This document shows positions 1 through 19,842 of a stretch of DNA of 61,648 nucleotides, one piece after another. Both the position numbers and the translations under genes were made by a program. Source of the stretch: Bacteroidota bacterium (GTDB taxonomy: Bacteria > Bacteroidota > Bacteroidia > Bacteroidales > FEN-979); NCBI GenBank assembly GCA_037131145.1, contig JBAXRP010000003.1, positions 1 through 61,648 of the forward strand, written 5' to 3'. Within the stretch, counting starts at the first letter, position 1. The number at the start of each line of letters is the position of its first letter. The notes beneath the pieces are model-generated. The model was not told the origin of the DNA. It worked only from the letters and a program-made list of their open reading frames with translations, and ran no database searches.

Positions 1-2004
1 GGAACGTTCCTTAATTTAAAGTTTAAATATAATGGAATAATCCCCGGGTTTGTCAACTTTATTGGAATGAGCCAGTTTACCAATAATTTTTACCAACCCA
101 TAAATGTGGGATTTTCAAATTCCACAATTTCTCCGGGTGTTGATTTGCCAAATGCAACTGTTACAATTGGAACAGTTACTGGTAATGTAAATGATTTTGT
201 TGAGATACCTATTGATATTATTAACGGTTATCCAAACCCATTATTGGGAGCTGCAACTATGTTTATTGGGTTTGACGAGTCTAAACTATCCTTTATTGGA
301 GCAGTGAATAATATTCACAATGCGACTGTCAATCTTACCGGTAATCAGATTGGTATTGCATGGGTCGATCCCAGTGGTGTAAACCTCACAGGCGTTTTCC
401 TTAAACTTAAATTTCAATATCATGGTGGTGGTGGTAATAGTTGTAGTTCGGAGGTTTATTTTAAAAATGATAATCTTACGATTCAGCCTTGTGAACTTGC
501 AAATAATCTTGCTGAATTTGTTCCTGGTAACTGGGTAAAAGGAGGTGTGAATCTTAGTTTGGCACAACCTGTTATTAATGGACCTCCAGCCCCACCGGCT
601 AACTCAACTGCTTATTATTCTACTGATATTGGCATGATTAACTATAACTGGATAGTTTCAGGGGGTATAATAGTTACAGGTAATGGAAGTAATTCTATTA
701 CTGTTGATTGGGGCGCGGTTGGACCAGGATCTATTTCTGTAGATTATAATAACGCTGGTGGATGTTACCTTACTTATACAAAGACAATTATGAAGTTATC
801 TGGTTCTCCAATAACAAATATTGAGGGTTATGTTACTTATGATAATTTGGCCTCACAAGGATTGAACGGTGTAAATATCACTTTGTTTAATTCTTTGGGT
901 GTTCAAGTTGGTATTCCCGTTTCAACATATACAAATGTAGGCAACGGATTTTATAGTTTTATTGGCGTACCTCAGGATGCTTATACGATTGTGGTAAATC
1001 CGTCAGCTCCGTGGGCTGGTACGCCTGGCGTTAGCGCTCTTGATGCTTTAATTGATGAACTTCAGACCGTCGGCTTATTTAATCCTCCCTTATCTGGAAT
1101 TAGGTTAGCCGCAGCCAATGTTGACGGAGGTTCTTCTGTTAATTCAACAGATGCTTTAAATATTAAAAAGCGCATCATTGGTGAAATTTCTTCATTTCCT
1201 GTCGGCGACTGGGTGTTTAATAACGGAATCATTAATGCTTTTAATAGTCCGGTTTCAAACTATAATTTTAAAGGGTTATGCACTGGCGATGTGAATGGTT
1301 CTTACAACTTGATTGCCAATAAATCTGCAACCGTTTTTGATATTGTAGAAGATGATATTCAGACAATTACTACTAATGAGTGGTTTACCTATAATATTAA
1401 AAGTGCTGTAAATTCACAACTTGGCGCTATGACTTTGTTCCTTGCTTATGATTATACCCGCTTTGAAATAGAGAAAGTAAATACGAACATGGTGGGTTTA
1501 AAATCATCAATAAAGAATGGTAATGTTGCCGTTGCATGGTCTAACCCTTCAGCAGGCTTGATTGGTGTCGGGGATGTGATTCTTTCTTTTCGTATTAAAG
1601 CAAGACAACCAATAACTAACCCTGGTTGTATTTTTACAATTATGGCAGAATCTGAATTGGCTGATCCTCTTGCAAACATTATAAATACGTTCAAGTTTCA
1701 AATGGCGAAGGTTATTAGTAACACGAACCAATTCAGTTTTACGACATCCCCAAATCCATTCCGCAATTCTACAAACATATTATTTTATCTTCCGGATGGA
1801 GGGAAAGCAAAATTTTCAATAACCAATCTTGTTGGCAGACAAATTTGTGTGCTCTTTGATGAAATAGTTTCTTCAGGGAATCATGTCGTTTTATTCGATG
1901 CAAATAAATTCAATTTAACCCCAGGCATTTATCTTGGAAAACTGGAGTTTGAATCGCTAAATGAAAAAATTTCTACGGTTAATAAACTAATATTAACAAA
2001 ATAA
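1..2004 (+). CDS. 5'-truncated secreted multi-cohesin / PKD-like / transthyretin-like / dockerin / cohesin protein with T9SS type A CTD
   Basis: Frame is open from base 1 (GTFLNLKFKY...), so the true start lies upstream. Cohesin motifs (GAATMFIGFDESKLSF...FLKLKF), dockerin-like NVDGGSSVNSTDAL, CTD SPNPFRNST...GIYLGKL...KLILTK. Confidence 0.8.
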   Translation, partial: GTFLNLKFKYNGIIPGFVNFIGMSQFTNNFYQPINVGFSNSTISPGVDLPNATVTIGTVTGNVNDFVEIPIDIINGYPNPLLGAATMFIGFDESKLSFIGAVNNIHNATVNLTGNQIGIAWVDPSGVNLTGVFLKLKFQYHGGGGNSCSSEVYFKNDNLTIQPCELANNLAEFVPGNWVKGGVNLSLAQPVINGPPAPPANSTAYYSTDIGMINYNWIVSGGIIVTGNGSNSITVDWGAVGPGSISVDYNNAGGCYLTYTKTIMKLSGSPITNIEGYVTYDNLASQGLNGVNITLFNSLGVQVGIPVSTYTNVGNGFYSFIGVPQDAYTIVVNPSAPWAGTPGVSALDALIDELQTVGLFNPPLSGIRLAAANVDGGSSVNSTDALNIKKRIIGEISSFPVGDWVFNNGIINAFNSPVSNYNFKGLCTGDVNGSYNLIANKSATVFDIVEDDIQTITTNEWFTYNIKSAVNSQLGAMTLFLAYDYTRFEIEKVNTNMVGLKSSIKNGNVAVAWSNPSAGLIGVGDVILSFRIKARQPITNPGCIFTIMAESELADPLANIINTFKFQMAKVISNTNQFSFTTSPNPFRNSTNILFYLPDGGKAKFSITNLVGRQICVLFDEIVSSGNHVVLFDANKFNLTPGIYLGKLEFESLNEKISTVNKLILTK

Positions 2005-2014
2005 CAGGAAAACA

Positions 2015-2048
2015 ATAATAGGGAGGCTTTATTGCCTCCTTATTTATT
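2015..2048 (+). terminator. Intrinsic terminator hairpin
   Basis: GGAGGC-tttatt-GCCTCC stem (2022-2039) flanked by A-rich and T-rich tracts, just after the stop at 2004. Confidence 0.65.
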
Positions 2049-2061
2049 TCAGAGCAGATGC

Positions 2062-3135
2062 ATGAATAGGCTATTAAATTGCTTTGCCTTAACTATTTGG
2101 AATATACTTTTTTTTGCCTTATTGGGGTTAAATCCTTGTGGAAGTAGTTTTGCTCAATCACCAATACTGTCATTAGGAAATATCGGAATTTGTAATTCTG
2201 AATCTTTAATAATGCCTTTAAATGGTAAGAATTTAGCAAATATTGGAGCAATGACATTGTTTATATATTTTGATGATGAAAAATTATTATTTCATTCATT
2301 GGAGAACATTAATCCGGTGATTATAGGATTGCAGTTTAATGTGTTAACTTATCCTTCATGTATTAGTATCGTGTGGAGCAATACCAAAGGAGTTAATTTT
2401 TATGATAGCAATTTACTAAACCTTAAGTTTGATGTTATAAACTCTTCTGGAAATATTAGATTTGCAATTGATAGTTGCGAGATTGCCGTCGCAAATATCC
2501 CGCCAGAGATTATTTCTGTGGAATATTCCAATGGATCATTTTATCCTGGAGATCCCATTATTACTGGAAATCCTGAAAATTTAACTGTTTTATATAATTC
2601 AAATGCTCATTTTAATTTAACTTCAACTGATGCTACAGGATATCTTTGGCAGGAGAGTGTAGATGGTGGAAGTTCCTGGATTGATTTACGGGATGGTGTT
2701 GCTTATTCTGGCACAACTGGTGCGGATTTAGCAATTTTGAATGTTCCTGCAACCTTCAACAATAACCGGTACCGTTGTGCTGTTACAAAGGCAAATTGTA
2801 GTCTTTATTCTGAGGATGCGCTGCTTTCAGTTGATTCGTTGTCGAGGATTAGTGAAATTGGTTATTCGGGAATGATAATTTATAATTTTCCTAATCCTTT
2901 TGCAGAAAGTACCCGATTATCTTATTATGTTCCGAAATCTGGAGAGGTTACTATCGAGTTCTTTACTGTAGCGTGTAATCGTTTAATTACAATTATTAAG
3001 GGATTTCACTTGCCAGGGCTGTACACCATTGAATTAAATTTAGTATATTTGCCCAATGGATTATACCTATGCAGATATAAATTGGAAACGAATCAAGTAA
3101 TGGGTTTAAAAAATTGTAAACTAACAAAGAATTGA
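2062..3135 (+). CDS. Secreted cohesin + Ig-like domain protein with T9SS CTD
   Basis: ATG 2062 preferred because TTG 2032 lies in the hairpin. Signal peptide, cohesin (IGAMTLFIYFDDEKL), Ig domain (YLWQESVDGGSSW...YRCAVT), CTD FPNPF...GLYLCR. Confidence 0.75.
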   Translation: MNRLLNCFALTIWNILFFALLGLNPCGSSFAQSPILSLGNIGICNSESLIMPLNGKNLANIGAMTLFIYFDDEKLLFHSLENINPVIIGLQFNVLTYPSCISIVWSNTKGVNFYDSNLLNLKFDVINSSGNIRFAIDSCEIAVANIPPEIISVEYSNGSFYPGDPIITGNPENLTVLYNSNAHFNLTSTDATGYLWQESVDGGSSWIDLRDGVAYSGTTGADLAILNVPATFNNNRYRCAVTKANCSLYSEDALLSVDSLSRISEIGYSGMIIYNFPNPFAESTRLSYYVPKSGEVTIEFFTVACNRLITIIKGFHLPGLYTIELNLVYLPNGLYLCRYKLETNQVMGLKNCKLTKN

Positions 3136-3199
3136 TAATTGTTTAAATTTGATATATTAATAAGTCCCTTTATAGTAATTAACGAAAATAATATCCACC

Positions 3200-5377
3200 A
3201 TGATGAGAAAAGGTACTTTAGTTATTCTGACGTTTTTGATCATTAGAGCGCTATCTTACGGACAATATACTGCAATGTTGCCGAACATGGTTGCAAGTCC
3301 TAATGAGAATATTGGAATGGATTTGAATGTAACAGGGTTGAATACTAATAACATTGCTTCAATTCAATTTTATATTCAGATTGATCCTGCGGTATTAACA
3401 TTTCAAAATGTAACAAATTTTCAACAAGCGGGTCTGATGGTGGGTTTCATTAATGGAAATACTATTACCATTGTTTGGACCAGCGGAAGTCCTAAAAACT
3501 TTCCTAATGGAAGACTATTAACCTTGAATTTTAAATACAATGGGTTGACAAGTCCTACATCCTTCATACCTTTGAATTGTGAAGTTGTTAAACTTGTTGG
3601 ATCTATACCTGTTATACTTACTGGAACTTTTACCAATGGGTCGGTAACTCCTTTTCCAGGTAATCAGGCAAAAGCGAAACTGGATAGTTTGTTATATGCA
3701 CCCTTGGGTTTAGATACAGTTTCTTTGAAATATACTGGTTTCATTGGAAATAATCTTTTACCTCTACCGGTTGGCGCGATTACCCAGCGAATTTCTTATG
3801 ATCAAGTAAAGCTTACTTTTGTTGGTGTAACTGGTATTGGAAATCTTGCTACTGGGTTTAATGTAAATGTTGCCACAGGAATTATTACTATAACTTGGAC
3901 GAGTATTGCAGGAAAGAATATTAATTATCCGGGTAATATGTTTAAAATTATTTTTAGTTATATAAATGCTTCTCCAGCAAACGTAAATTTTAGTACTGGA
4001 TGTGTAATAGAAACTACTTCGCCTGTTACAAATATTCCTGTATCCTATTTTAACGGGTGCGTTTTACCGCCACCGGTTGTAACATCTTATGCTTCTTTTG
4101 CAAATGTACCTGGAGGAATTCAGGGGCAAACAATAGATGTTCCGTTGAACTTTTTGAGTATGCCATCGAATACATCAAACTTTAATTTGAATATTTTATT
4201 TGATAGTCCAAGGTTATCTTTTGTTGGATTAGTGGGTACTCCCATTCAACCGGTAACTTACAATGTAAATGGAAACTTGATTTCAATAACGAATTCATAT
4301 CCACTAACACCTAATCCATCAATTAATGGTCAGTTTCTCAAATTGCGATTTGTTTATATGGGTGTGGGTACAGCAAATGTGAATTTTGCAAGCGGATGCC
4401 AATTTTCGAATGGCGCTCCAATCGGGGTAGGTTACACAAATGGTTCTGTTACGCCAGCGGTAGTTGTTGGCAATAATGCCACTATTGGGAATATTACCCC
4501 TTCCGCTCCAGGAGCGGTTTTAGTGCCGGTTACTTTAAGTGAAATGCCAATTAATGTTGGCGCTGTTACAATGTTCATTGGCTTCGATGCTTCTAAGCTT
4601 ATCTATACCGGCTGTACAGGAATAAATAACCCTTATGGCGCAAATGTTAATCTTAATGGCGGTATTATTAAAATTGCTTGGGCAAGCACTAATCCACCAA
4701 ATCTTAACGGCTCTCCTTTTGTCAATCTTCAATTTACTTATGTATGTGGTTCAGGAGCCTCAGGTAGCGCTGCCAGTGTGTATTTTACTGATAATGGTAT
4801 TAGCGAATATTGTCGGATTGATTCTTTATCAGGAAAAATTATTCCAACGAACTGGCATGATGGGGGTGTAAATTTAAATGTTACTTTCAAGATTAGCGGC
4901 ACATTAAAATATAACAGTGATCCAAATCCCCGAATCCCTTTAGTTGGATACACGGTAAAGTTATTAACTTTTGAAAATGTCTTGGTTTCATCAACAGTTA
5001 CTGATGGTTCCGGTTATTTTGAATTTTTTACGTCCAACGGAAGTTTTAAGCTTGGTGCAGCTCCTCCTTCATTATATAATTATTACTCTGACTTGGATGA
5101 CGTTTTAGCAATGTTACAATATACTGTCGGCGAACCTATCCCTTTTTTCAATGATTTACGTTTATTAGCTGGTGATGTAAACGAGAATGGTGACATAGAT
5201 CTTGATGACGTTGTTGATGTTCTTCAGCGAGGAGTTGGTGAAAAATTGCCTGATTATACTGCGCCTGACTGGGTTTTCAGCGTAAAACTTGTTAACTGTA
5301 GTTGTGCTGATGTTCCTAATCAAAATTTCATGGGATTAAACACAGGTAATGTTTTGGGAACCAATCCCACTCCGTAA
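3200..5377 (+). CDS. Scaffoldin-like protein: signal peptide, 4 cohesins, transthyretin-like domain, C-terminal dockerin-like domain; no T9SS CTD
   Basis: Four ~130-aa repeats with a (F/Y/I)DxxxLx(F/Y) core ending NGSV/NGCV/DGGV; dockerin GDVNENGDIDLDD. Confidence 0.8.
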   Translation: MMRKGTLVILTFLIIRALSYGQYTAMLPNMVASPNENIGMDLNVTGLNTNNIASIQFYIQIDPAVLTFQNVTNFQQAGLMVGFINGNTITIVWTSGSPKNFPNGRLLTLNFKYNGLTSPTSFIPLNCEVVKLVGSIPVILTGTFTNGSVTPFPGNQAKAKLDSLLYAPLGLDTVSLKYTGFIGNNLLPLPVGAITQRISYDQVKLTFVGVTGIGNLATGFNVNVATGIITITWTSIAGKNINYPGNMFKIIFSYINASPANVNFSTGCVIETTSPVTNIPVSYFNGCVLPPPVVTSYASFANVPGGIQGQTIDVPLNFLSMPSNTSNFNLNILFDSPRLSFVGLVGTPIQPVTYNVNGNLISITNSYPLTPNPSINGQFLKLRFVYMGVGTANVNFASGCQFSNGAPIGVGYTNGSVTPAVVVGNNATIGNITPSAPGAVLVPVTLSEMPINVGAVTMFIGFDASKLIYTGCTGINNPYGANVNLNGGIIKIAWASTNPPNLNGSPFVNLQFTYVCGSGASGSAASVYFTDNGISEYCRIDSLSGKIIPTNWHDGGVNLNVTFKISGTLKYNSDPNPRIPLVGYTVKLLTFENVLVSSTVTDGSGYFEFFTSNGSFKLGAAPPSLYNYYSDLDDVLAMLQYTVGEPIPFFNDLRLLAGDVNENGDIDLDDVVDVLQRGVGEKLPDYTAPDWVFSVKLVNCSCADVPNQNFMGLNTGNVLGTNPTP

Positions 5378-5415
5378 TTCATTTTCGATTTGTTATATAT
5401 AAATTCGATACAATT

Positions 5416-7467
5416 ATGAAAAACAAATTCAAATATTTTAGGAATACAACGATTATTTTATTCATGTTAGTTGTATCTCAGATTGTTATTGGTCAGGCTC
5501 CTGTTGCAACAATTAACTATAACGCTACAGGTTTGGTTCCTGGGTCAACAATATCAGTACCACTGACTTTGACCGGTACTCAGGTTGGAAATTTATCTTT
5601 CGTGATTTCATATGACAGGGATATTCTAACTTATGTTGATTATACAACAACTTTACCGTTAGGAGCCGTTGGGAACAACTTTTCTTATTTAGGTCAATTG
5701 TATTTGAGGGCGGCTTCTGTTAGTGCTAGCGGGGTAACTTATACGAATCAGACAATATTCACTTTCAACTTTATTTACAATGGAGGTTCAACAAACATTA
5801 GTTTTTTTAACATTGCTACTGCTACAAATCAAACTGCTAATTGGTTTACGTATATAAAAGCGAATCCGTATAATATTATAAATCTGGCATCTGTTTTCAA
5901 TAATGGATCAGCAAGTGGCGAGTATGATACTCTTACATCTGTTACTGGTGGCGGCAATTGGAGTAATCCGACAACGTGGCAGGAAAATTATCCTTCAGGG
6001 TTAAAAAAACCGACCCGGGCGTGTAACGTGATTATTACTGCAAATGAGGTTGTTGACACTACAACAGTTTCATTAGGCAGATGTAATAACCTTACAATTA
6101 ATAATGGTGGCAAACTAACTTTGCCTTTCGGTAAATCGTTAACCGTTAATGGATCTTTTACCATCGAATCAGGTGGCTCTTTTGTTGATCAAAATCAATC
6201 AAGCGCTTTTTCTGCAACTGTGAAAAGAGCTATTACCGGTAATTATGCTGGTGGTGGAAATCCTTTGCCCACAACAATATGGCACTATGTTTCGGCTCCT
6301 ACCTCAAATGCTACAATTGGTACATTTCTTGGCTGTTTATTGAATAAATGGACAGAAAATTCTGCAGGTGGAACATGGGATACACTTTGTCTCCCGCTAA
6401 CTTTACCATTAGAGGTAGGGCGAGGATATTCTGTGGCGGCCTACAGTAATTTTGGCAATGCGGTTTTTTCTGGACCCCTTAATACCGGAAATCTGACCAT
6501 AAGCGGTTTAACTAACTCTAATCCAAACCCAGGTACAGGAAACGGTTATTATGGGTACCATCTTTTAGGAAACCCATATCCCAGCGCTTTTAAATGGGAT
6601 AATGCCATTGTTTTGGCACCACCTCAGGTTGATGGCGCTGTATATCTATGGAATGGGTATAATTATATTTCAAAAACACAGGCTATGGGTTATCAAATTC
6701 AAGCTGAACAAGGTTTCTTTTTTCATGTGAATGCCTCGGGTGGTTCTGTTACTATTCCAAATGGAAATCGGGTTCATTCCGATAGCTCTTATTTGAAAAG
6801 TAGTATCGAAAACCAACTAACACTTACTGTTAATGGAAATGAATATGTGGATGAAACTTCTGTGATATTTAATGATCAAGCCACTCCGGGGTTCGATGGA
6901 GAATATGACGCGTATAAATTATTTGGTATATATAATTGTCCTCAGATATTTTCAATTCTTTCTGATAATATTTTATCAATTAATACATTACCAGATATGA
7001 TTTCTCAACCTGTTGTTCAAATTGGTTTTAAATCAGGTACTACCGGTTCATTTACACTTAATACCTCTGGCATTGAAACGTTTGCATCAGGGACTGATCT
7101 CTACCTGACAGACCTGCTAACAGGGAAGGTTCAAAACTTAACCTCTAATCCGGTTTATATATTTAACTCTGCACCGGGTAATACTGAACATAGGTTTGAT
7201 TTGCATTTTGCACCGGTGGGGATGAATGAAACAGGTAATAATGTTAAATTGAAAATCTACTCTTTTGATAATAATGTATTTGTCAATATTCAGGATGATT
7301 TACAAGGTAGCATTATCATTTATGATTTGCTTGGAATGGAAATTGTGAAAAAAGCAATAGAATCCAAAACTTTGAATAAAGTCGAAATTAGTTCACCTGG
7401 AGGATATTACCTTGTAAAAGTCATAACAGATAAAATATCTGCAACTGAAAAGGTATTTATCCGATAA
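5416..7467 (+). CDS. Secreted protein with N-terminal cohesin, GNW/LGNPYPS-type region and T9SS CTD
   Basis: Signal peptide; ISVPLTLTG...ISYDRDILTY cohesin; WHYVSAP, LLGNPYPS and FDGEYDAYK motifs; CTD IYDLLG...GYYLVKV...KVFIR. Confidence 0.8.
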   Translation: MKNKFKYFRNTTIILFMLVVSQIVIGQAPVATINYNATGLVPGSTISVPLTLTGTQVGNLSFVISYDRDILTYVDYTTTLPLGAVGNNFSYLGQLYLRAASVSASGVTYTNQTIFTFNFIYNGGSTNISFFNIATATNQTANWFTYIKANPYNIINLASVFNNGSASGEYDTLTSVTGGGNWSNPTTWQENYPSGLKKPTRACNVIITANEVVDTTTVSLGRCNNLTINNGGKLTLPFGKSLTVNGSFTIESGGSFVDQNQSSAFSATVKRAITGNYAGGGNPLPTTIWHYVSAPTSNATIGTFLGCLLNKWTENSAGGTWDTLCLPLTLPLEVGRGYSVAAYSNFGNAVFSGPLNTGNLTISGLTNSNPNPGTGNGYYGYHLLGNPYPSAFKWDNAIVLAPPQVDGAVYLWNGYNYISKTQAMGYQIQAEQGFFFHVNASGGSVTIPNGNRVHSDSSYLKSSIENQLTLTVNGNEYVDETSVIFNDQATPGFDGEYDAYKLFGIYNCPQIFSILSDNILSINTLPDMISQPVVQIGFKSGTTGSFTLNTSGIETFASGTDLYLTDLLTGKVQNLTSNPVYIFNSAPGNTEHRFDLHFAPVGMNETGNNVKLKIYSFDNNVFVNIQDDLQGSIIIYDLLGMEIVKKAIESKTLNKVEISSPGGYYLVKVITDKISATEKVFIR

Positions 7468-7503
7468 TCAAATACATAAGCTGACAATTAAAATCTACAG
7501 AAT

Positions 7504-7758
7504 ATGAAAAAAATACTGACTTATTTTGTTATCGTCTTTTTGATTTCTCTTTCCTTTTTTAGTATTGCCGATAATCCGGGACCTCCTCCTCCTCCTGGCG
7601 GCGGCGGGCCAGGAGGTGGTGGAACACCGGTAGGCGCACCTATTGATGGAGGAATAGGGATCCTTCTGGCGCTTGGTTTGGGATACGGAGGCATGAAACT
7701 ATTTCAGTCCAGAAAAGATAAGGATTTTGATTCAGAAATAGAAAAGATAGAAGAATAG
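7504..7758 (+). CDS. Small Pro/Gly-rich PID-CTERM sorting-domain protein
   Basis: Signal peptide, PPPPPGGGGPGGGG linker, APIDGG followed by a hydrophobic helix and basic residues. Confidence 0.8.
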   Translation: MKKILTYFVIVFLISLSFFSIADNPGPPPPPGGGGPGGGGTPVGAPIDGGIGILLALGLGYGGMKLFQSRKDKDFDSEIEKIEE

Positions 7759-7832
7759 TCGTCGTTTTCTTGTTACTAGGATTATGGTTTACCTATCAGT
7801 ATGATTATAAATATTCTTTCTGTGATTCTCAG

Positions 7833-7867
7833 AATTGACCTTATTGTTGTTTTCAATAAGGTCAATT
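7833..7867. repeat. Perfect 14-bp inverted repeat (terminator or operator)
   Basis: AATTGACCTTATTG-ttgtttt-CAATAAGGTCAATT. Confidence 0.75.
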
Positions 7868-7910
7868 AATAAATAAACTATTCACAATATTTACAATTAA
7901 TTTTTTGGTT

Positions 7911-8342
7911 ATGAAGAAAATATTTGCTATATCGGCATTTTTGTTTATGGGGTTTTTTGGATATTCACAAGAGTTAAAACCTGAAATGGTTCCACAAAAA
8001 ATATTGGACAGGTTTCATCACGCATTTCCTCAATCTGTTGATCTTCCTGTGTCTTGGGTGAAAGAGAAAGGTGATTATAAAGCTACTCTCACAATTATGG
8101 ATGCTCCAGCGATAATGGTTATTGATTCACTTGGGAAAACCAAACGAATTGAAAGAAAAATCAATGAAATTTATTTGCCAAAAAATGCAAAAGATTATTT
8201 AAAAAATTTAGATTCTAATTATCAGGTTATTACAGTTACAAAGATTGTTGATGAAAAGGACAAGGTAACTTATAACACCACTGCGAAGATAAAGACCAAT
8301 TTCACTTTCGACGATAAAGGAAAAATTTCTAATCCAAAATAA
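7911..8342 (+). CDS. Exported PepSY-like/BLIP-like small protein
   Basis: Signal peptide MKKIFAISAF; VPQKILDRF..FP and LPKNAKDYL repeats typical of PepSY_like proteins. Confidence 0.55.
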   Translation: MKKIFAISAFLFMGFFGYSQELKPEMVPQKILDRFHHAFPQSVDLPVSWVKEKGDYKATLTIMDAPAIMVIDSLGKTKRIERKINEIYLPKNAKDYLKNLDSNYQVITVTKIVDEKDKVTYNTTAKIKTNFTFDDKGKISNPK

Positions 8343-8359
8343 GAACAGTTTCATCATTC

Positions 8360-10135
8360 TTATTTGTTAATAATTTCTTCTGTTCCTCCGAAATATTTAT
8401 ATTGATTTGCAAAGTAAATAGCAGAATCATTGTTTTTTGCATCATAATAATAATATAGACTGAGGCTTTTATATGCATCCTTTAGATCTGGTTTGTTTTT
8501 GATTGCCCTTCGCCACATTGATGCTGCGCTTTGTTTTTCTCCTTTAGTTATTAAAAATAATCCTAAATCATAAGCGGCAAGACCGTTTGATGGATCATTA
8601 TTTAAGGCCTCGCGACATCGGGCAATAGCTTTATCTATTTGATTATTTTTAAAAAAAACGCACGATGATTCGATACAAAAAAGAACAAAGTTGGCGCGTG
8701 CTTCGTTGTCACTATACCCTTGATTAAATGCTGAGGCAAAATAACTATATGCTTTTTCATAGTTTTTTTTATCAGTGTAATAAATCATTCCCAAATTATA
8801 TCTGAAGATTGGATATGTTTTTACACTATCTGCGCGAAGGAGTAGTTTCTCATAATTATTAAAATCTTTCTGCTTAAAATAATATCTTCCCAAAAAGTAG
8901 GGAAACCATGACCTTTCCGGGGCATAATTAATAGATGAAGACCAAAAACTGACAGCATCTTGATATTTTTTTTGCTGGAGAAAATCATAAAATATAAATA
9001 AAGCCAAAATAGTTAATATTATTAAACTGGTTTGTTTTGTTTTCATTTCAAACCATCTTTCCGGAAGCAGACCCAGAAGCATGATTATAAATCCAATTGA
9101 GGGCAAATAGATACGGTGAAGAAGATATTCAAAACTGTCGTCAGCAGAAGTAAGGCGAACGAACATATTGGGAAAACAGAAACCGAGAAACCAAACTGAC
9201 CCGAAAAGGATTAAAATAGTTTTCTGATTGTGTTTTTGTTTAAAAATAATAAAAAAAAATGCGATGATAATCAAAATACCTGCAATTGTATATCCAGACG
9301 AAAAAACGGGAGTTACAGGGAGATTAAAAGGAAAAATAAGCCGAGTAATCCCCTCAGGAAGAAAAGGCAGGTTATGCATTAAAGGTGATAATCCAACCTG
9401 ATTGTCAGCCCGGTGATCAATTGTAATATCCCTCATGTAAAACCAAAAAAGAAATACACCCAACCATGACAGGTAAACCGGAATTCTTTTCATAGTAAAA
9501 AACTTTTCCTTTTTTATCAGCGTAATAAAAATGAAAAAGAACGGAAGAAAAATGGCGGATTCTTTTGAAAAAAGTGCGCAGGCAAAAAATAATACATGTA
9601 AAATCAGGAAATTATATTTTTGATCTTTAAAATATTTCATTAAAAAAATAATTGTGAGAATGGAATAAAGCGTGACCAATAAATCTCCTCGTGCCGGGAT
9701 CCAAAGAACAGCATGACCCATAACCGGGTGAACAGAAAAAATTAATGTAATGATCAGTGATTGGGATTTGCTGAATTGTAGTAACTGTAGCAACCAAAGA
9801 AGACTCAGACATACCATAATGTGGTAAAACAGGTTCGAAAAATGATAAATTGCAGGCGAAACGCCACCAATTAGGGCATCTATCATAAAAGATACATTCA
9901 TTAATGGCCTATAATATGGACTTCTGTTTGCAAAAAAAGCATCGCTATGGAAAGCAGTTCCAATGTTAGACAGGTTGCTTAGCTTTTCAAAGTTTCCAAG
10001 AATGAGAATATCATCATCAAAATAAACAAAACCAAGCTGAATTGCCGATATATATACAATCAGCGGAACAACAATAACGAAAATGACACTGTAGCGATAA
10101 ATGTCAAACCGGTTAACCTGTGCTTTTTGTTTCAT
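8360..10135 (-). CDS. TMTC-like GT-C membrane glycosyltransferase with C-terminal TPRs
   Basis: FVYFDD, YYRPL, HPVMGHAVLWIPARGDLL and SKE motifs; multiple TM helices; TPRs. Confidence 0.8.
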   Translation of the reverse strand: MKQKAQVNRFDIYRYSVIFVIVVPLIVYISAIQLGFVYFDDDILILGNFEKLSNLSNIGTAFHSDAFFANRSPYYRPLMNVSFMIDALIGGVSPAIYHFSNLFYHIMVCLSLLWLLQLLQFSKSQSLIITLIFSVHPVMGHAVLWIPARGDLLVTLYSILTIIFLMKYFKDQKYNFLILHVLFFACALFSKESAIFLPFFFIFITLIKKEKFFTMKRIPVYLSWLGVFLFWFYMRDITIDHRADNQVGLSPLMHNLPFLPEGITRLIFPFNLPVTPVFSSGYTIAGILIIIAFFFIIFKQKHNQKTILILFGSVWFLGFCFPNMFVRLTSADDSFEYLLHRIYLPSIGFIIMLLGLLPERWFEMKTKQTSLIILTILALFIFYDFLQQKKYQDAVSFWSSSINYAPERSWFPYFLGRYYFKQKDFNNYEKLLLRADSVKTYPIFRYNLGMIYYTDKKNYEKAYSYFASAFNQGYSDNEARANFVLFCIESSCVFFKNNQIDKAIARCREALNNDPSNGLAAYDLGLFLITKGEKQSAASMWRRAIKNKPDLKDAYKSLSLYYYYDAKNNDSAIYFANQYKYFGGTEEIINK

Positions 10136-10216
10136 TATAAGAAGTTATGAAACGTTAAAAGTATAAATATTTTTCAATCGTAACAAATTTTGTAACTTCG
10201 CTGATGAATAAGGCTT

Positions 10217-12775
10217 ATGAGAACAACCTTCCGCATTAACACAATCCTTTCATTTCCTGTATTCTGGATTGGATTAATCAGCATTTTTACATTTATTGCA
10301 TATTACCCGGCGCTGCATGGAGCATTTACGAATTGGGATGATATGGTTTACGTAAAAGAGAATCCATATATAAAAACCATCTCTGTTGGCAATTTGAAAG
10401 CGATTTTTTCAACTAATTTTATGGGAAATTATCATCCTTTAACGATGATTTCTCTTGCTATTGATTATCAGATTAATAAATTCAATCCGTTTGGATTCCA
10501 TCTGACTAATCTTTTTCTTCATATCCTAAATTCAATATTGGTATTACTTGTTATCAGGAAACTTACAGGGAATTTATTAATCGGAGCTTTTGCCGCATTG
10601 ATATTTGGAGTCCATGCCTTCCATGTGGAATCGGTTGCATGGATATCGGAAAGAAAGGATGTATTATATGCTGGTTTTTATTTATTAACATTATTATCTT
10701 ATCTTGAATTTACTGCCAAATCCGGACTAAAATGGTATCTATTGAGTCTGTTTATATTTTTATTAGCCTGTTTATCTAAGGGTCAGGCTGTTACCTTAGG
10801 AGTTTCATTGATTTTAGTTGATATTTTCTTAGGACGTAAGTGGGCTTCTTTGAAAGTCCTTATTGAAAAGGTCCCGTTTCTAATAATTGCATTTGTTTTT
10901 GGAGTTGTTGCCATCAAAGCACAGGCCGGAGCTGATGCTACCATTATGGCAAATTTCCCTATTCAGCAGCGGTTTGCATTTGCTTCGTACGGACTTGTGA
11001 TGTATATATTGAAACTATTGATTCCTTTTAAATTATCTGCTTATTACCCTTATCCAATTATCTCTGATGTTGGTGAGGTTCCATTGGTATATTGGTTGTG
11101 TATAATTCCTGCAATTGTATTATTTGTAGGGTGGATTATTTCTTATAAACGCTCAAAACCGGTTTTTTTTGGGATAGGCTTTTTTCTTGTGAATATTGTT
11201 TTTCTCCTTCAACTCCTTCCTGTCGGGCGTGCTATAATGGCTGATCGTTATGTTTATATCCCATCTATTGGCTATTGTTTCCTTATTGGATGGTATCTTA
11301 ATGATTTTAAATACATTAATTCCCGGGTGACAGCTTTTATTATTATTATTCCTTATGTTGCATTATTAGGCTTTCTCACCTTTCAACGAAGTCAGGTTTG
11401 GAAAAATTCCGTAATCTTATGGAGTGATGTTCTGGAAAAGAATAGCCAGGTTACGATTGCATGGTATAACCGAGGTAATCTTTGCATGGATTCTGCGGAT
11501 TATCATGGCGCTATATCTGATTATACTGAGTGTTTAAACGTTGACAATAAATATTGGAAAGCTTATATAAACAGAGGCAATGCAAAGAATGAACTAAAAA
11601 ATCACATCGGAGCTATTGAAGATTTCAATGCAGTTCTCAGACTGGATTCTTCTTCCTTAAGGGCTTATGTAAACCGTGCAATGTCGTTTCAAAAGCTATT
11701 GGATTACAACAACTCTCTGAAAGATTTCAATAAGGCACTCAGTTTAAAACCGGAACAGGTTGAAATATATACGAGTCGGGCAAACCTGAAATTTGAAATG
11801 AAGGATTATCAGGGAGCAATCAGCGACCTTACCGAGGGCTTGCGCATTAATCCTAAATATGTTGTTGGTTATTTGAACCGTGCAATAATAAAGAAAAACA
11901 CCAAAGATTTAAAAGGCGCTATCGAAGATTACAATAAAGCAATTGAGCTTGACCCCAAAAACAGTGATATAATTAATAATAGAGGAAATTTACAATTTCA
12001 GATAGGAGATACCAGTAGCGCTTGTAAAGACTATTCGGAAAGCATTCGTATAAGCCCGGAACAGTATCTCGGTTATAAAAATCGCGGCGCTTTGAAGTTT
12101 TCCATGGAAAAGTTTGATGATGCGTTGGCAGATTATAATATTGCAATTCGTCTTAATCCTTCTTCCGGAGAGTTACATTATAACCTGGCCTTGGTTAAAC
12201 AAAAGAAAAATGATCAAGCCGCCACGTTGTCAGAGTATAAAAAAGCGGTAGAATTGGATCCAATTTATGCTTCAGATGAGTTCAGGCAAAAGCTTGGAAT
12301 AAAATCAAATGAAATTGAAGGGTTTCAACCCTCACAGTTTAATGAACAGGGAAAGGCAATGGAGTCGAAGGGCAATCTTCAGGAGGCATTAACATTATAT
12401 AAAAAAGCTGTGGAATTAAAACCAGAGTTTGCTGAAGCCTGGTATAATCTGGGCAATATCTATGGTAAAACAGGGAAGTATGCTGATGCCATGCAGTGCA
12501 TGGATAACGCTATTCGCTTTAAAAAGGATTATGCCGAAGCCTTGTCAAGCAGGGGAATCGCTTATGCCAGTATGGGTAAAGTGAATGAGGCGCTCAATGA
12601 TTTATCATCTTCAATAAAAGCAAATCCGAAATGTGCTGCGGCATACTATAACAGGGCAATTGTATATCTAACCAATGGAAATAGAGAATCAGCCTGTACA
12701 GATTTGAATAAAGCAATCGAACTGGGCTATACCGCCGCCTACCAAATATACCAGAAAGAGTGTCAAAAAAAGTAA
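10217..12775 (+). CDS. TMTC-like GT-C membrane glycosyltransferase with long TPR array
   Basis: FTNWDD, NYHPLT, HVESVAWISERKD, ADRYVYIPSIG; more than 10 TPRs (AYxNRG). Confidence 0.85.
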   Translation: MRTTFRINTILSFPVFWIGLISIFTFIAYYPALHGAFTNWDDMVYVKENPYIKTISVGNLKAIFSTNFMGNYHPLTMISLAIDYQINKFNPFGFHLTNLFLHILNSILVLLVIRKLTGNLLIGAFAALIFGVHAFHVESVAWISERKDVLYAGFYLLTLLSYLEFTAKSGLKWYLLSLFIFLLACLSKGQAVTLGVSLILVDIFLGRKWASLKVLIEKVPFLIIAFVFGVVAIKAQAGADATIMANFPIQQRFAFASYGLVMYILKLLIPFKLSAYYPYPIISDVGEVPLVYWLCIIPAIVLFVGWIISYKRSKPVFFGIGFFLVNIVFLLQLLPVGRAIMADRYVYIPSIGYCFLIGWYLNDFKYINSRVTAFIIIIPYVALLGFLTFQRSQVWKNSVILWSDVLEKNSQVTIAWYNRGNLCMDSADYHGAISDYTECLNVDNKYWKAYINRGNAKNELKNHIGAIEDFNAVLRLDSSSLRAYVNRAMSFQKLLDYNNSLKDFNKALSLKPEQVEIYTSRANLKFEMKDYQGAISDLTEGLRINPKYVVGYLNRAIIKKNTKDLKGAIEDYNKAIELDPKNSDIINNRGNLQFQIGDTSSACKDYSESIRISPEQYLGYKNRGALKFSMEKFDDALADYNIAIRLNPSSGELHYNLALVKQKKNDQAATLSEYKKAVELDPIYASDEFRQKLGIKSNEIEGFQPSQFNEQGKAMESKGNLQEALTLYKKAVELKPEFAEAWYNLGNIYGKTGKYADAMQCMDNAIRFKKDYAEALSSRGIAYASMGKVNEALNDLSSSIKANPKCAAAYYNRAIVYLTNGNRESACTDLNKAIELGYTAAYQIYQKECQKK

Positions 12776-12776
12776 A

Positions 12777-15239
12777 ATGAAGCCACCATCAAAGCATAAA
12801 AAAACACACCATCCAACTAAAGTTCCCGAACAAGGTAATTCAAAAAGGAAATCTTTAGATCATTTTTTTCTTTATTCATTTATCATCCGAAATAGCTTTC
12901 TGATTGGCATCAGCCTAGTTTTTGCTTTGATTCTAATAATTTTCCATAATTTTTTATTTGCCAATCTGTATTATCTTTTCAAAGACATTGGAAGTGATTC
13001 ATTAAACTGGACGTATCCATCTTACCTTCATATATCAGAGTATCTTAGAACAGAGGGTTTCCCTTTATGGTCATTCTCGCAGGGGATGGGGCAAAGTGTT
13101 GCGAATAGTATGAATGATCCTTTTTCCTGGCTGGTTTATATCGCAGGAGCCGAAAACCTTGCTTATTCAATGATCTGGATGGAGGCGCTGAAAATTTTGG
13201 TTACAGCCGTTTTGTTTTATCATTTTCTTCGTTATTGGAATTTATCCGGTGTTACCAAGGTTATCGGTACTGTCCTATATAGCTTTAGCGGGTTTATGAT
13301 TGTTGGAAGTGGCTGGACTATTTTTTCTACGGAAGCATGTTACCTGGCGCTTTTATTACTCAGCTTTGAGCGTCTGTATAAAAATGGTTCCTGGTACCTG
13401 TTCCCGATTGCAGTATTATTGATTACAATCCTACAGCCCTTTGATCTTTATCTCTATGGACTTTTTCTGTTTTGCTATTTCTTACTGCGACATCTTACAA
13501 GCGAAGAATCCAGCTTAAAAAGGTTTTTTAAGACTCTGGGTCAAATTGTAGTTTTCGGACTTCTCGGGCTTATGATTAGTTGTTTCTTCCTTGTTTTTTT
13601 TATTCAAATTATTATTGATAGTCCAAGAATTGGCGGTAGTTCCTCCTATTTTACTCAATTATTTTCTCAACCTCTGTTTTTTACAGAAAAATCCATTTAC
13701 TATACAACATCCATTTTACGATTGTTTCACAATGATTTAATTGGAAATGGCAGCAAGTTTTACGGATGGTACAATTATCTTGAAGCGCCAATGTTCTATA
13801 TTGGAATTTTTCCTTTGCTTTTATTTCCACAGATATTTTTTTTAGAGGGGCGCAGGAAAAAAGTTGGTTATGCGATTTTTTCAGGGTTATTGCTATTCCT
13901 TCTGATATTTCCATTTTTCAGATATGCTATCTGGCTTTTTTCAGGCGATTATTTCAGAGGCTTTTCACTTTTCATTTCTGTGCCACTTTTGTTATTTGGG
14001 CTGTCAGCCTTCAGCGCTTTTGATAATGGAAAAAAAATAAACCCATACATACTTATCGCAACTGCTGTAGTATTGATTTTCCTCCTTTATTTTCCCTATA
14101 CCGGAGCTGATCAGATTATTCGGAGTGATATTCAGAGTGACGTAAGGAATTTTATTGTCATCTATACAATTATTTTATTGTTGTTTACAATTAAAACATA
14201 CAACCAGATTCTTAGTGTTGTTTTAATGTTAATTATCATTATCGAAGCCGGTTATTTTAATTATAAAACACTAAAGGAAAGGGATGTGCTTTCACGGCTG
14301 GAGATGAATCAGAAAATCGGGTATAATGATTTTGGAATTGACGCTATTAAAAATATAAAATCGTATGATAAACAATTTTTCAGAGTAAACAAGGATTTTT
14401 CCTCCAATCCCGCAATGCATACAAGTTTTAACGATGCAAAGGCACAGGGTTTTTTTGGAACACGTTCGTATTATTCTTTTAACCAAAAATATTATATAAG
14501 GTTTTTGGAGGAAATGCTCATAATTAAAAAAGGAAGTGAAACCATGAGCCGCTGGTCAATCGGACTATCAGGACGACCCTTGTTGCAGATATTGGCAAGC
14601 ACAAAGTATCAGTTAATCCGAGGAACTATTCTTCCGCCATTTACCATTCTGTACGATTCATTAAACATGTTTGGCGATGTTAAAGTGTTGAAAAACAGAA
14701 ATTATTTACCACTTGGGTTTACCTATAATAATTTTCTTCGACTGAGTGTTTTCAGGAAGGCATCAACTCCACAAAAGGAATTCATTCTTCAAAAAACCTG
14801 TGTTATTGATGATTCACTATCAAACTACTTTGAATCTTTTCCCGGCTTCTCAATGACTGATACTGTTTCGCGTTATAGTATTCTCGATTTATCACATGAT
14901 GTGATAAAAAGGAAAGAGGATACATTAAATATTACAAGATTCACTGAAAATCGTATTGAAGGAACCATAAATCCAAAAACCAAAAAAATCTTGTTTTTTA
15001 GCATTCCGTATGATCGCGGATGGCATGGAAAAATTGATGGCAATGAAACAAAACTGTTTTTAATAAATATCGGGTTTATCGGTATGATAGTTGAACCGGG
15101 ATTTCATAAAATTGATTTGTATTATCGCCCACCTTATTTTTTTGCCAGCATGATGGTTTCGGTATTCGGGTTATTGATTTACCTGAGCGCTATTGTCGGT
15201 AGCCGGTTTTTGATTTATCGTAAAAGAAGTAAAAACTGA
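12777..15239 (+). CDS. YfhO-family membrane protein (GT-C glycosyltransferase)
   Basis: Polytopic N-terminus (DIGSDS, PLWSFSQGMG); C-terminal FFSIPYDRGWHGKIDG...GFHKIDLYYRPP typical of YfhO. Confidence 0.85.
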   Translation: MKPPSKHKKTHHPTKVPEQGNSKRKSLDHFFLYSFIIRNSFLIGISLVFALILIIFHNFLFANLYYLFKDIGSDSLNWTYPSYLHISEYLRTEGFPLWSFSQGMGQSVANSMNDPFSWLVYIAGAENLAYSMIWMEALKILVTAVLFYHFLRYWNLSGVTKVIGTVLYSFSGFMIVGSGWTIFSTEACYLALLLLSFERLYKNGSWYLFPIAVLLITILQPFDLYLYGLFLFCYFLLRHLTSEESSLKRFFKTLGQIVVFGLLGLMISCFFLVFFIQIIIDSPRIGGSSSYFTQLFSQPLFFTEKSIYYTTSILRLFHNDLIGNGSKFYGWYNYLEAPMFYIGIFPLLLFPQIFFLEGRRKKVGYAIFSGLLLFLLIFPFFRYAIWLFSGDYFRGFSLFISVPLLLFGLSAFSAFDNGKKINPYILIATAVVLIFLLYFPYTGADQIIRSDIQSDVRNFIVIYTIILLLFTIKTYNQILSVVLMLIIIIEAGYFNYKTLKERDVLSRLEMNQKIGYNDFGIDAIKNIKSYDKQFFRVNKDFSSNPAMHTSFNDAKAQGFFGTRSYYSFNQKYYIRFLEEMLIIKKGSETMSRWSIGLSGRPLLQILASTKYQLIRGTILPPFTILYDSLNMFGDVKVLKNRNYLPLGFTYNNFLRLSVFRKASTPQKEFILQKTCVIDDSLSNYFESFPGFSMTDTVSRYSILDLSHDVIKRKEDTLNITRFTENRIEGTINPKTKKILFFSIPYDRGWHGKIDGNETKLFLINIGFIGMIVEPGFHKIDLYYRPPYFFASMMVSVFGLLIYLSAIVGSRFLIYRKRSKN

Positions 15240-15387
15240 CCATTTAAACTTTATTTGAGAACACTTTGCCAGCGGTCATACCAGATTTTCTTTGGGAATG
15301 GTTCAAGGAAAAATATGAGATTATCTATTCTCAACTGGATGGGTTTATACATTTGGCGACAATGATTTGAATGTAAAATTTCAGAAT

Positions 15388-16173
15388 ATGAAAGAGTTAG
15401 AAATTTGCAAAAAAGAGTGTCTTTTAGAAATATTAAGGTTATATAAAAAAGCAAACGCCGGACATATTGCCGCTTCTCTTTCATGCCTTGATATTTTAAT
15501 ATTGTTGTATTTCAGACAGATGAGCGATCAAGATCATTTTATTCTATCAAAAGGTCATGCAGCTTTGGGCTTATATACGGTACTTTCAGCATCTGGAAAA
15601 ATTTCACCGGATGAACTGGAAACTTTTTATGAAGATGGCACCAAGCTGGCTGCTCATCCTCCATGTAGTGGATTATTAAATGGTATTGTTTTTGGGACAG
15701 GCAGTTTGGGGCATGGTTTATCACTTGCAGCCGGAAAGGCTTTATCTACTCGTTTTACCGGTAACAAAGCCAAAGTTTATTGTCTTTTATCAGATGGAGA
15801 TTGCAATGAAGGATCTACCTGGGAAGCAGCTTTATTTGCAGGCCATCATAAATTAAATAACCTTATTGTAATCGTTGATAATAATGGACTTCAAGGGTTT
15901 GGAAGTACTCTTGATGTACTTGACCTGACGCCTTTAAAAAGCAAATGGGAGTCTTTTAATTTTGATGTGTATATAGGCGAAAACGGAAATGACCTGGAAT
16001 GTTTACAAAAGGTATTCAATTCTATCAAATATGATGATTTTAGGCCAAAATGTATTATTGCAAAAACTATAAAAGGCAGCGGCGTATCGTTTATGGAGAA
16101 TAAAATGGAATGGCATTATCTGCCCATGACTGACGAACAGTATTCTCAGGCAATAAAACAAATAACTTTCTGA
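15388..16173 (+). CDS. Transketolase, N-terminal (TPP-binding) subunit
   Basis: AGHIAASLS, ILSKGHA, GSLGHGL, SDGDCNEGSTWEA, IVDNN. Confidence 0.9.
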   Translation: MKELEICKKECLLEILRLYKKANAGHIAASLSCLDILILLYFRQMSDQDHFILSKGHAALGLYTVLSASGKISPDELETFYEDGTKLAAHPPCSGLLNGIVFGTGSLGHGLSLAAGKALSTRFTGNKAKVYCLLSDGDCNEGSTWEAALFAGHHKLNNLIVIVDNNGLQGFGSTLDVLDLTPLKSKWESFNFDVYIGENGNDLECLQKVFNSIKYDDFRPKCIIAKTIKGSGVSFMENKMEWHYLPMTDEQYSQAIKQITF

Positions 16174-17087: not shown

Positions 17088-17088
17088 T

Positions 17089-19107: not shown

Positions 19108-19110
19108 AAA

Positions 19111-19842
19111 GTGACAACAATCAAGAAAAATGTTACTGTTTTTAACAGTGATGTTGAGGCTAACCAAGGCTACAAATATACTACCAATACAAAGTTTTCA
19201 TCCGTTGTATCAAATTTACGATTGACAAACATAACCCTTGAAAGCATTCCGGCAGGCGTGAAATCATTAATTGATATTGGTTGTGGCGATGGTACTTACA
19301 CTTATGAACTTTATAAGGCAAGAACTGATTTAACCATTGCGGCTACAGATCCTGCTACTAAAGCAGTAGAACTTGCGAAGCAAAATTATTCGAATATTGA
19401 TTTTTTCCCTTCTAATATTTTGGTGCCAGAAAGTTTTGCCAACAGACATTATGATATGGCAGTTATCAGAGGTGTTTTACACCATTTATCAGATCCGAAA
19501 AAAGCCATTGAAAACACATTAGACCTTGTCAACTATATGTTAATCATAGAACCAAATGGGAATAATCCTGTTTTAAAATATATTGAAAAACATTCGGCAT
19601 ACCATGTTGAGCATGAGGAACAATCCTTCACAACAAGCCAATTAAAAAACTGGTGCGGCGATGCCGGATGGCAGATTTCTTCCATTCAATATGTTGGGTT
19701 TGTTCCTTTTTTTTTCCCAACGTTTTTGTCGAAAATGATCTATTTTTTCCAACCATTTATGGAAAAAATTCCAATGCTAAGGTTTTATTTAAGTGGACAA
19801 ATAGTAATTCTTTGCCAAAAAAATAAAAATGGGAAGCGTTAA
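19111..19842 (+). CDS. Class I SAM-dependent methyltransferase
   Basis: LIDIGCGDG, GVLHHL, IIEPN; GTG start. Confidence 0.85.
   Translation: MTTIKKNVTVFNSDVEANQGYKYTTNTKFSSVVSNLRLTNITLESIPAGVKSLIDIGCGDGTYTYELYKARTDLTIAATDPATKAVELAKQNYSNIDFFPSNILVPESFANRHYDMAVIRGVLHHLSDPKKAIENTLDLVNYMLIIEPNGNNPVLKYIEKHSAYHVEHEEQSFTTSQLKNWCGDAGWQISSIQYVGFVPFFFPTFLSKMIYFFQPFMEKIPMLRFYLSGQIVILCQKNKNGKR

Follow-up and report, generated by a model that had tools for sequence, protein, structure and literature searches.

Cohesin-dockerin pairing is the textbook route by which Gram-positive anaerobes build enzyme complexes. What, then, do tandem cohesin and dockerin genes serve for in a member of the Bacteroidales? 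The question is raised by the start of a 61,648-nucleotide stretch of DNA (the window), which is contig C3 (JBAXRP010000003.1, assembly GCA_037131145.1) of a freshwater Bacteroidales genome bin of 4.99 Mb (546 contigs, 92% complete, 4% contamination). Five open reading frames on the + strand (ORF1-ORF5) stand in tandem there, and the four of them that carry cohesins or dockerins span window 1-7467, with nine cohesin-like domains (eight whole, one cut) and two dockerin-like modules. With about even confidence, this cluster is read as a plug-and-socket surface scaffold that organises giant adhesins, rather than as a cellulosome. That reading is favoured because the domain identities and architectures mirror cellulosome logic, with type IX secretion system (T9SS) tails and adhesin-like cargo. 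A fixed cassette of dockerin, cohesin and T9SS C-terminal domain (CTD) closes many giant T9SS surface proteins, and anchor-like and adaptor-like genes lie alongside in a conserved cluster. The five genes are:

1..2004, + strand: ORF1, 3' part of a gene for about 1034 amino acids, 5' end open
2062..3135, + strand: ORF2, 357 amino acids counted from the ATG at 2062 (the ORF listing gave 2032..3135)
3200..5377, + strand: ORF3, 725 amino acids
5416..7467, + strand: ORF4, 683 amino acids
7504..7758, + strand: ORF5, 84 amino acids, without cohesin or dockerin

A preliminary description of this DNA, which covered 1..7758 and took in ORF5 as well, had proposed four tandem secreted proteins with about nine cohesins and two dockerins, and this holds. 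The eight complete cohesin domains align with common motifs (MAFFT), and a hidden Markov model (HMM) made from this alignment matches nine stretches of the window: three in ORF1 (one partial), one in ORF2, four in ORF3 and one in ORF4. Pfam Cohesin (PF00963, gathering cut-off 24.1 bits) is above its cut-off in ORF1 (31.8 bits) and ORF3 (72.5 bits, four stretches). Searched as pieces, ORF3 gives 32.1, 30.5 and 26.2-27.9 bits, with its third cohesin below the cut-off (19.2 bits), and ORF4 gives 24.9 bits as a 170-residue piece and 21.3 bits, below the cut-off, as a whole protein. PF00963 has no match to ORF2 or to the ORF1 cassette cohesin, both of which were found with our own HMM; the ORF2 cohesin also matches ORF3 cohesins in BLASTP (2-3e-8). 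When a 48-row cohesin profile was compared with PDB sequences, all 27 rows at E <= 0.01 were cohesin-bearing chains, headed by 1g1k_A (5.3e-15) and 2vn5_A (1e-14). An AlphaFold2 (AF2) model of the three-domain cassette (ORF1 residues 262-667, 34 sequences, model m71cc02bfcf0d) has pLDDT 88.5 and pTM 0.77. Its cohesin (residues ~442-576), the weakest of the nine by sequence, matches 2vn5_A with Z 12.2 (rmsd 2.3 over 120 residues), as well as 2xdh_A (Z 11.8), 4uyp_A (Z 11.8) and about a dozen further cohesins; Foldseek pairs it with 6kgf_A (TMt 0.70). The fold evidence concerns this one modelled domain, and the other eight are assigned by sequence. Profile and model together identify the repeats as real cohesins, not other beta-sandwiches.

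Both dockerin segments of the window belong, by alignment, to a conserved module of ~165 residues. Its order is a beta-sandwich, 'WGGxNATDAL' with a helix, a short helix, 'AADVNxSxxINxTDAL' with a helix, 'FPxGDWxF', two strands and 'GLCxGDVNGSY'. The sandwich (ORF1 model residues 9-72 and 143-168) resembles CnaB and transthyretin-like domains (8bdw_A, Z 10.4) and carboxypeptidase D domain II (1qmu_A, Z 10.0). Because only 80-94 residues align to these folds over the ~160-residue sandwich range (model residues 9-168), the three helices (85-95, 105-111 and 121-131) are taken as an insert. All 31 PDB rows that a 48-row profile of the insert alone matched at E <= 0.1 are dockerin-bearing chains, the best being 4uyq_B (5.8e-11) and 1ohz_B (2.5e-9), and 3ul4_B aligns over profile positions 8-62 of 67. 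An AF2 model of the ORF3 insert (residues 622-688, pLDDT 84.6) forms the three-helix dockerin fold (helices 11-21, 31-37 and 47-57). The top 23 Foldseek rows listed for it are dockerin chains (TM 0.39-0.74, most 0.5-0.74; rmsd 1.8-5.0; probability 0.47-0.99), such as 2ccl_B (TM 0.69/0.74) and 6kgd_B (rmsd 1.8 over 49 columns), with E-values of at least 0.14 because the domain is small (67 residues). Thus, both helical segments are real dockerin homologues lying within another domain.

The second calcium loop of ORF3 is canonical (DxNxNGxxDxxD), with positions 1, 3, 6, 9 and 12 invariant in six orthologues. The first F-hand repeat keeps only loop positions ~6-12 and the helix; the residues expected at loop positions 1-5 are precisely those of the 'GDVNG' that closes the module, beyond the last sandwich strand. 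Seven ORF3 orthologues without 'WGG', which form one clade, are also degenerate at the C-terminal motif ('GNVLG', 'GDVLG' or 'GDVAG'). This joint decay of 'WGG' and 'GDVNG' suggests that the first dockerin loop may be split between two chain segments.

Signal-peptide-like hydrophobic N-termini followed by Gln can be read in ORF2, ORF3 and ORF4. The tail of ORF4 is above the TIGR04183 cut-off (25.6 against 23 bits), and that of ORF1 is below it (21.3 bits). The ORF1 tail (model residues 316-406) folds as a T9SS CTD, with matches to PorU (6za2_B, Z 11.2), the mirolase CTD (8qb1_A, Z 10.2) and PorZ (5m11_A, Z 9.2). That of ORF2 is weak (Por_Secre_tail, PF18962, 15.3-17.3 bits against a 27-bit cut-off), and our own CTD HMM recognises it in all orthologues. 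ORF3 has no CTD of either type in the family profile search (no family at E <= 1), and all 14 ORF3-type orthologues or paralogues examined stop 0-2 residues past the dockerin module, without CTD. The genome encodes SprA (1769.8 and 851.3 bits on two contigs) and two PorU sortases (1342.8 and 1232.7 bits). The earlier term 'T9SS-anchored' therefore fits ORF1, ORF2 and ORF4 but leaves the export of ORF3 unexplained. The domains within the four proteins are:

1-144, + strand: ORF1 cohesin 3, end only (own cohesin HMM, residues 1-48, partial)
151-585, + strand: ORF1 cohesin 4 (own cohesin HMM, residues 51-195)
598-768, + strand: ORF1 PKD_6 (domain match)
805-1320, + strand: ORF1 sandwich with dockerin module (dockerin insert 1000-1203)
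1324-1758, + strand: ORF1 cassette cohesin (own HMM, residues 440-586)
1750-2001, + strand: ORF1 T9SS CTD (fold match)
2158-2571, + strand: ORF2 cohesin, following the signal peptide (own HMM and BLASTP)
2572-2886, + strand: ORF2 Ig-like middle, without family match
2887-3132, + strand: ORF2 weak T9SS CTD (own CTD HMM)
3263-3676, 3665-4093, 4082-4477 and 4469-4900, + strand: ORF3 four unlike cohesins, following the signal peptide (own cohesin HMM)
4883-5374, + strand: ORF3 sandwich with dockerin module (dockerin insert 5063-5263), at the protein end, without CTD
5497-5943, + strand: ORF4 divergent cohesin, following the signal peptide (Pfam on a piece and own HMM)
5935-7251, + strand: ORF4 domain of ~440 residues (residues 174-612), without Pfam match in the library used
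7270-7464, + strand: ORF4 T9SS type A CTD (TIGR04183)

The 5' end of ORF1 is cut because the contig begins at window base 1. In full length the protein has four N-terminal cohesins (1012-residue database copy P0014), and its orthologue in the related locus L035 begins with a signal peptide; with full-length ORF1 included, the four genes have 11 cohesins, nine of them wholly or partly within the window. ORF1 and ORF3 are paralogs, as had been proposed (BLASTP, 34% identity over 237 residues, E 1.4e-31), and the motif pair first quoted for them comes from cohesin 4 of each. The ATG at 2062 is the most likely start of ORF2, as the TTG at 2032 sits within a hairpin and T-run, and the resulting 357 residues equal the length of the L035 orthologue. 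By our own HMMs, every ORF2 orthologue is cohesin-Ig-CTD. The fold of ORF4 residues 174-612 (ESM Atlas) matches C-terminal parts of Bacteroidota T9SS proteins (TM 0.73-0.80), whose heads are leucine-rich repeats, ice-binding domains, He_PIG and DUF285; the Atlas labels the aligned part PF30702. On this modelled likeness, the 440-residue domain is read as a common stalk, with the cohesin as its head. About ten paralogues of the domain occur in the genome, and in many Bacteroidota surface proteins with unrelated heads its predicted fold comes ahead of the CTD.

Profile searches at permissive E-values (E <= 1 or E <= 0.5) found no catalytic family in the cluster proteins, so the absence of a recognisable catalytic domain is borne out. 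The cluster is enzyme-free as first described, but the genome as a whole is not. Contig C369 encodes, on the - strand (L085:2-3520), an S8 subtilase (Peptidase_S8, 170.7 bits) with a fervidolysin-like prodomain; its C-terminal Dockerin_1 (38.1 bits) is canonical and not embedded in another domain. This is the one dockerin-bearing enzyme found in the genome and the sole enzyme among the 33 cohesin/dockerin proteins scanned there. Neither these 33 proteins nor those of the window contain a glycoside hydrolase, polysaccharide lyase, carbohydrate esterase or carbohydrate-binding module (CBM), the components that would mark a cellulosome.

Across the genome, a Pfam search gives 36 matches to cohesin (E <= 0.01) and 24 to dockerin (E <= 1); 10 dockerin matches, all elsewhere than in the window, are above the Dockerin_1 gathering cut-off (PF00404, 22.9 bits), including one in the ORF3 paralogue on contig C192 (27.5 bits). 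With our own HMMs the counts are 48 cohesins, spread over 26 ORFs, and 17 ORFs with the dockerin module. The cassette, always in the order dockerin module, cohesin, T9SS CTD, ends giant adhesin-like proteins genome-wide. Pfam on 27 of the module or cohesin proteins shows SprB, Kelch plus beta-helix, YDG, PKD/CARDB and HYDIN-Ig heads, as well as beta-helix, and no glycoside hydrolase. Several cassette-ended genes precede a four-cohesin scaffold gene. On contig C157 (L058:2484-9053), a gene directly downstream of a beta-helix protein with a cassette end encodes 2190 residues with four cohesins, SLH, DUF6531 and RHS repeats. Window 3200-12772 has a syntenic paralogue in contig C192 (L054, 8.8 kb), with 44-63% amino-acid identity; the ORF4 counterpart on C192 is interrupted by an in-frame TAA. 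Contig C359 (L053) is a third locus of the same kind. The C192 and C359 loci could be true paralogues or a co-binned relative. That they are two ends of one locus was rejected, as their overlapping cohesin parts are 34% identical. GC content is 0.33-0.39 in the window cluster, 0.415 in C192 and 0.426 in the whole genome.

The cluster is conserved. Of 24 genomes sampled within the genus, 22 have an ORF3 match, as against one of 16 other families in the order. The 18 related loci compared keep the gene order; they come from genome records named uncultured Bacteroidales, Bacteroidota, 'Draconibacterium sp.' and Prolixibacteraceae metagenome-assembled genomes. The relatives show that the cluster extends upstream past the contig end and has conserved downstream neighbours. 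The conserved order is a giant adhesin with cassette end, a cohesin-Ig-CTD protein, ORF1 or a second cohesin-Ig-CTD protein, ORF2, ORF3, ORF4, ORF5, ORF6 and two PMT_2/TPR membrane proteins. In L035, whose best segment is 93% identical, the upstream gene encodes an SprB-repeat protein of at least 984 residues, open at the contig start and with a cassette end, and a 350-residue cohesin-CTD protein follows it. An apparent ORF3-ORF4 fusion (1201 residues, L046:8960-12562) is an artefact, with a run of X (masked or gap bases) between the parts.

In a quick maximum likelihood tree of 78 cohesins and 142 columns, each of the ORF3 positions 1-4 falls in a clade by itself (support 87-99), with the matching ORF1 position as its sister. 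The cassette cohesins form a deep clade (100), ORF2-type and B-type cohesins are sisters (95), and ORF4 cohesins stand in a clade of their own (92). The position-by-position sister clades indicate that ORF1 and ORF3 are block duplicates in which the four sockets were kept different, and the separate clades speak for distinct sockets.

In a sample of 301 genomes from the order, the profile of the dockerin module matches full-length in 85 (61 of 209 genera), frequently with many copies, and the cohesin profile matches in 78 of these 301; 71 have both, 14 the module only, seven the cohesin only and 209 neither. Eleven loci from other families were inspected: eight are module-cohesin-CTD and one is module plus CTD with the cohesin undetected. 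In the remaining two, L074 and L075, from two other families, the protein ends at the module and the next gene has an N-terminal cohesin, as in ORF3/ORF4. A phylum-wide sample has the module in 46 of 401 genomes. Among public sequences, 101 cassette proteins carry only the source names 'cohesin domain-containing', 'dockerin type I domain-containing' or 'T9SS type A sorting domain-containing'.

How these parts might work together can be sketched as follows. All members would reach the periplasm via their signal peptides. Those with a CTD (ORF1, ORF2, ORF4 and the upstream giant adhesin of relatives) would cross the outer membrane via SprA and be fixed on the surface by the PorU sortase. ORF2 (cohesin-Ig-CTD) and ORF4 (cohesin on a 440-residue stalk, CTD) would be anchors with one socket each, and ORF3 would be an adaptor scaffold, its dockerin plugging into an anchor cohesin, possibly that of ORF4, and its four cohesins offering position-specific sockets. 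ORF1 would be a self-anchored version of the same scaffold type. Giant adhesins with cassettes would plug into the scaffold sockets or into the cassette cohesins of each other and so be clustered at their bases; the cargo would be adhesins, not enzymes. We infer cohesin-dockerin binding, and hence the self-assembly into a lattice that the preliminary description had put forward, from these identities and architectures.

Complex prediction for the ORF4 cohesin (A4) and the ORF3 dockerin module (A3) gave 0.00 and 0.17 against a mark of 0.32, and counts neither way. Over 12 loci, distances of the ORF3 dockerin correlate best with those of the ORF4 cohesin (Spearman 0.70-0.74; 0.66 in a partial Mantel test given ORF7, p 0.0002), with ORF3's own cohesin 4 at 0.64 and cohesin 1 at 0.58. 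Choosing the partner by co-evolution was dropped, as all parts correlate and the ORF3 cohesins come close. Net charge showed no clear complementarity for ORF3 dockerin partners.

The cluster is present in RNA libraries, which falls short of proof of transcription. Two metatranscriptome runs of one study (X3 and X4) contain 53% and 39% of the words sampled from window 3200-7467, and their contigs lie on ORF1-ORF5 at >= 99% identity. These include a 1896-base contig on ORF1, outside the stretch used for finding the runs, and one over ORF5 (7500-7753). The gap between ORF1 and ORF2 (window 2005-2061) has a short inverted repeat, rich in GC and with a T-run behind it, which resembles a weak intrinsic terminator; an RNA-library contig (271-2166) nevertheless spans it. 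No X3 or X4 contig lies in window 8672-20000; the DNA runs X1 and X2 cover all 30 bins. The uncovered part weighs as no finding.

Several points weigh against an adhesin-organising scaffold. Dockerin_1 is below its cut-off in ORF1 (13.1-17.1 bits) and has no match in ORF3. The first loop of ORF3 in the window is degenerate ('YYSDLDD' and 'GNVLG' in place of the usual 'WGGxNxTD' and 'GDVNG'). ORF3 might stay periplasmic, its route across the outer membrane being unexplained, and the cassette dockerin may, to judge from the one-chain model (pTM 0.77), be occupied in cis by the adjacent cohesin. The co-occurrence of module and cohesin across genomes is partly trivial, because the cassette holds both and kinship inflates it. 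Lastly, the RNA evidence comes from one study and the same two samples as the DNA runs, and DNA can be present in RNA libraries.

Many cohesin and dockerin modules that lie outside cellulosomes reportedly lack a known partner (Peer et al. 2009), and the modules here could be structural. In that case the cohesins would be adhesin stalks, spacers or ligand-binding modules and the dockerin insert a calcium-dependent stiffener of the sandwich, with no plugging. The embedding of the dockerin in a CnaB/transthyretin-like domain and the typical adhesin repeats in the heads of cassette proteins would agree with this. However, the module and the cohesins travel jointly in fixed cassettes and clusters, and the cohesin positions stay distinct across the genus. 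ORF2 and ORF4, with one cohesin, a stalk and a CTD, and ORF3, with four cohesins and a dockerin, would be odd as adhesins and match anchor and adaptor scaffoldins. A purely structural role is thus considered unlikely.

A second possibility, thought quite improbable, is that the cassette dockerin binds its own cohesin, giving a compact basal unit for folding, T9SS recognition or sortase processing, with ORF3 and the single-cohesin proteins as accessory chaperones or competitors. Cassette length and order are constant in all 33 related cassettes aligned, the cassette always lies immediately before the CTD, and the pTM and pLDDT of the three-domain model suggest a fixed mutual arrangement. The dockerin-cohesin interface within the modelled cassette stays putative, however, and ORF3-type proteins have a dockerin without a cassette cohesin; this, and the excess of 48 cohesins over 17 modules, argues for partners in trans.

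Returning to the scaffold, one elaborate form of it is likewise held with little confidence. The cluster would then form the core of a T9SS machine for organising adhesins that has escaped recognition. Here the CTD-less ORF3 would hitch-hike, its dockerin seated in the ORF4 or ORF2 cohesin and the folded complex passing through SprA, and its four unlike cohesins would set the order of the giant adhesins. A split EF-hand would be part of this machine: 'GDVNG' (positions 1-5) and 'WGGxNxTD' (positions 6-12), ~90 residues apart, would come together and calcium would lock the dockerin to the sandwich.

That the scaffolds instead recruit dockerin-bearing enzymes from elsewhere into a cellulosome-like (e.g. 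protease-bearing) surface complex is very unlikely: the C369 Peptidase_S8 with its canonical Dockerin_1 and a few public cassette proteins with Peptidase_S8 (P0055, P0085 and P0091), lipase-like (P0044) or alpha-amylase (P0099) domains would fit, but enzymes are rare (~5 of 101 public cassette proteins, one of 33 in the genome itself) and no CBM or glycoside hydrolase is seen with the modules in that genome.

Downstream of the four cohesin genes lies ORF5, which has a signal peptide, a Pro/Gly-rich stretch and 'APIDGG' with a membrane helix and basic cluster. It scores 26.5 bits over 18 residues with PID-CTERM (NF046080), barely above the cut-off of 26. It directly follows ORF4 in all 12 related loci with sequence past ORF4, and has a paralogue on contig C191. 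The further neighbours are:

7905..8342, + strand: ORF6, 145 amino acids, secreted, without family match, conserved neighbour
8360-10135, - strand: ORF7, membrane protein, PMT_2-like with TPR repeats
10217-12775, + strand: ORF8, membrane protein, PMT_2-like with TPR repeats

PMT_2 (PF13231, cut-off 26.1 bits) matches ORF7 with 27.1 and ORF8 with 26.6 bits, and the TPRs are C-terminal, which is the layout of TMTC-type protein glycosyltransferases. By these family matches, ORF7 and ORF8 are likely glycosyltransferases. They adjoin the cohesin cluster in relatives and on C192 and may be functionally linked to it; the scaffold proteins may possibly be glycosylated. Window 8360-20536 encodes, after ORF7 and ORF8, YfhO, a split transketolase, an epimerase-GT2 fusion and two methyltransferases.

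Peer et al. (2009) reportedly catalogued non-cellulosomal cohesin and dockerin modules, some of them in Bacteroidetes. Dockerin-bearing proteins are assigned to Prevotella and Bacteroides in rumen data (PMC6487960). Searches of open-access papers and preprints turned up no description of the sandwich-embedded dockerin, the dockerin-cohesin-CTD cassette or the anchor/adaptor cluster. If binding is true, T9SS cargo would be wired into defined multi-adhesin assemblies, beyond one-by-one tethering. Such wiring would matter for how freshwater Bacteroidota attach, glide and colonise particles, and would offer new orthogonal plug-and-socket pairs for Gram-negative surface display.

Among known systems, T9SS type A cargo (Porphyromonas gingivalis gingipains, PorU and PorZ) is alike in its tail, as the C-terminal ~90 residues of ORF1 fold as the CTDs of PorU, mirolase and PorZ, and a beta-sandwich lies directly before the CTD. 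Here, however, that pre-CTD domain is a cohesin, with a dockerin-bearing sandwich ahead of it. In the Ruminococcus bromii amylosome, the Clostridium perfringens toxin/glycosidase complexes and an archaeal cohesin, the modules likewise serve ends other than breaking down cellulose. 2xdh_A, the non-cellulosomal cohesin from Archaea, ranks among the top fold matches of the cassette cohesin (Z 11.8), and R. bromii dockerins and cohesins are among the matches listed. Those systems assemble enzymes in Firmicutes or Archaea, whereas here mainly adhesin-like T9SS cargo of Bacteroidota is concerned.

The closest architectural parallels are with the clostridial cellulosome, whose solved modules match the cohesin and dockerin folds and profiles found here. 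ORF3 has several cohesins and a C-terminal beta-sandwich with dockerin, as CipA has type I cohesins and an X-module with type II dockerin. ORF2 and ORF4 have one cohesin and a surface-anchoring tail, as SdbA does among the anchoring scaffoldins (SdbA, Orf2p and OlpB), and the anchor genes come after the scaffoldin gene in both. The module profile also matches the X-module-dockerin chains 2b59_B (2.7e-6), 4wi0_B and 4u3s_B, with uncertain register. The differences are as clear. The host here is Gram-negative, a T9SS CTD replaces the SLH repeats, and there is adhesin-like cargo with no CBM and no dockerin-bearing carbohydrate-active enzymes. The cohesins of clostridial scaffoldins are near-identical, whereas the four of ORF3 and ORF1 are old unlike paralogues, not near-copies. 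Finally, the dockerin here is inserted in a CnaB/transthyretin-like domain, to which the chain returns after the insert.

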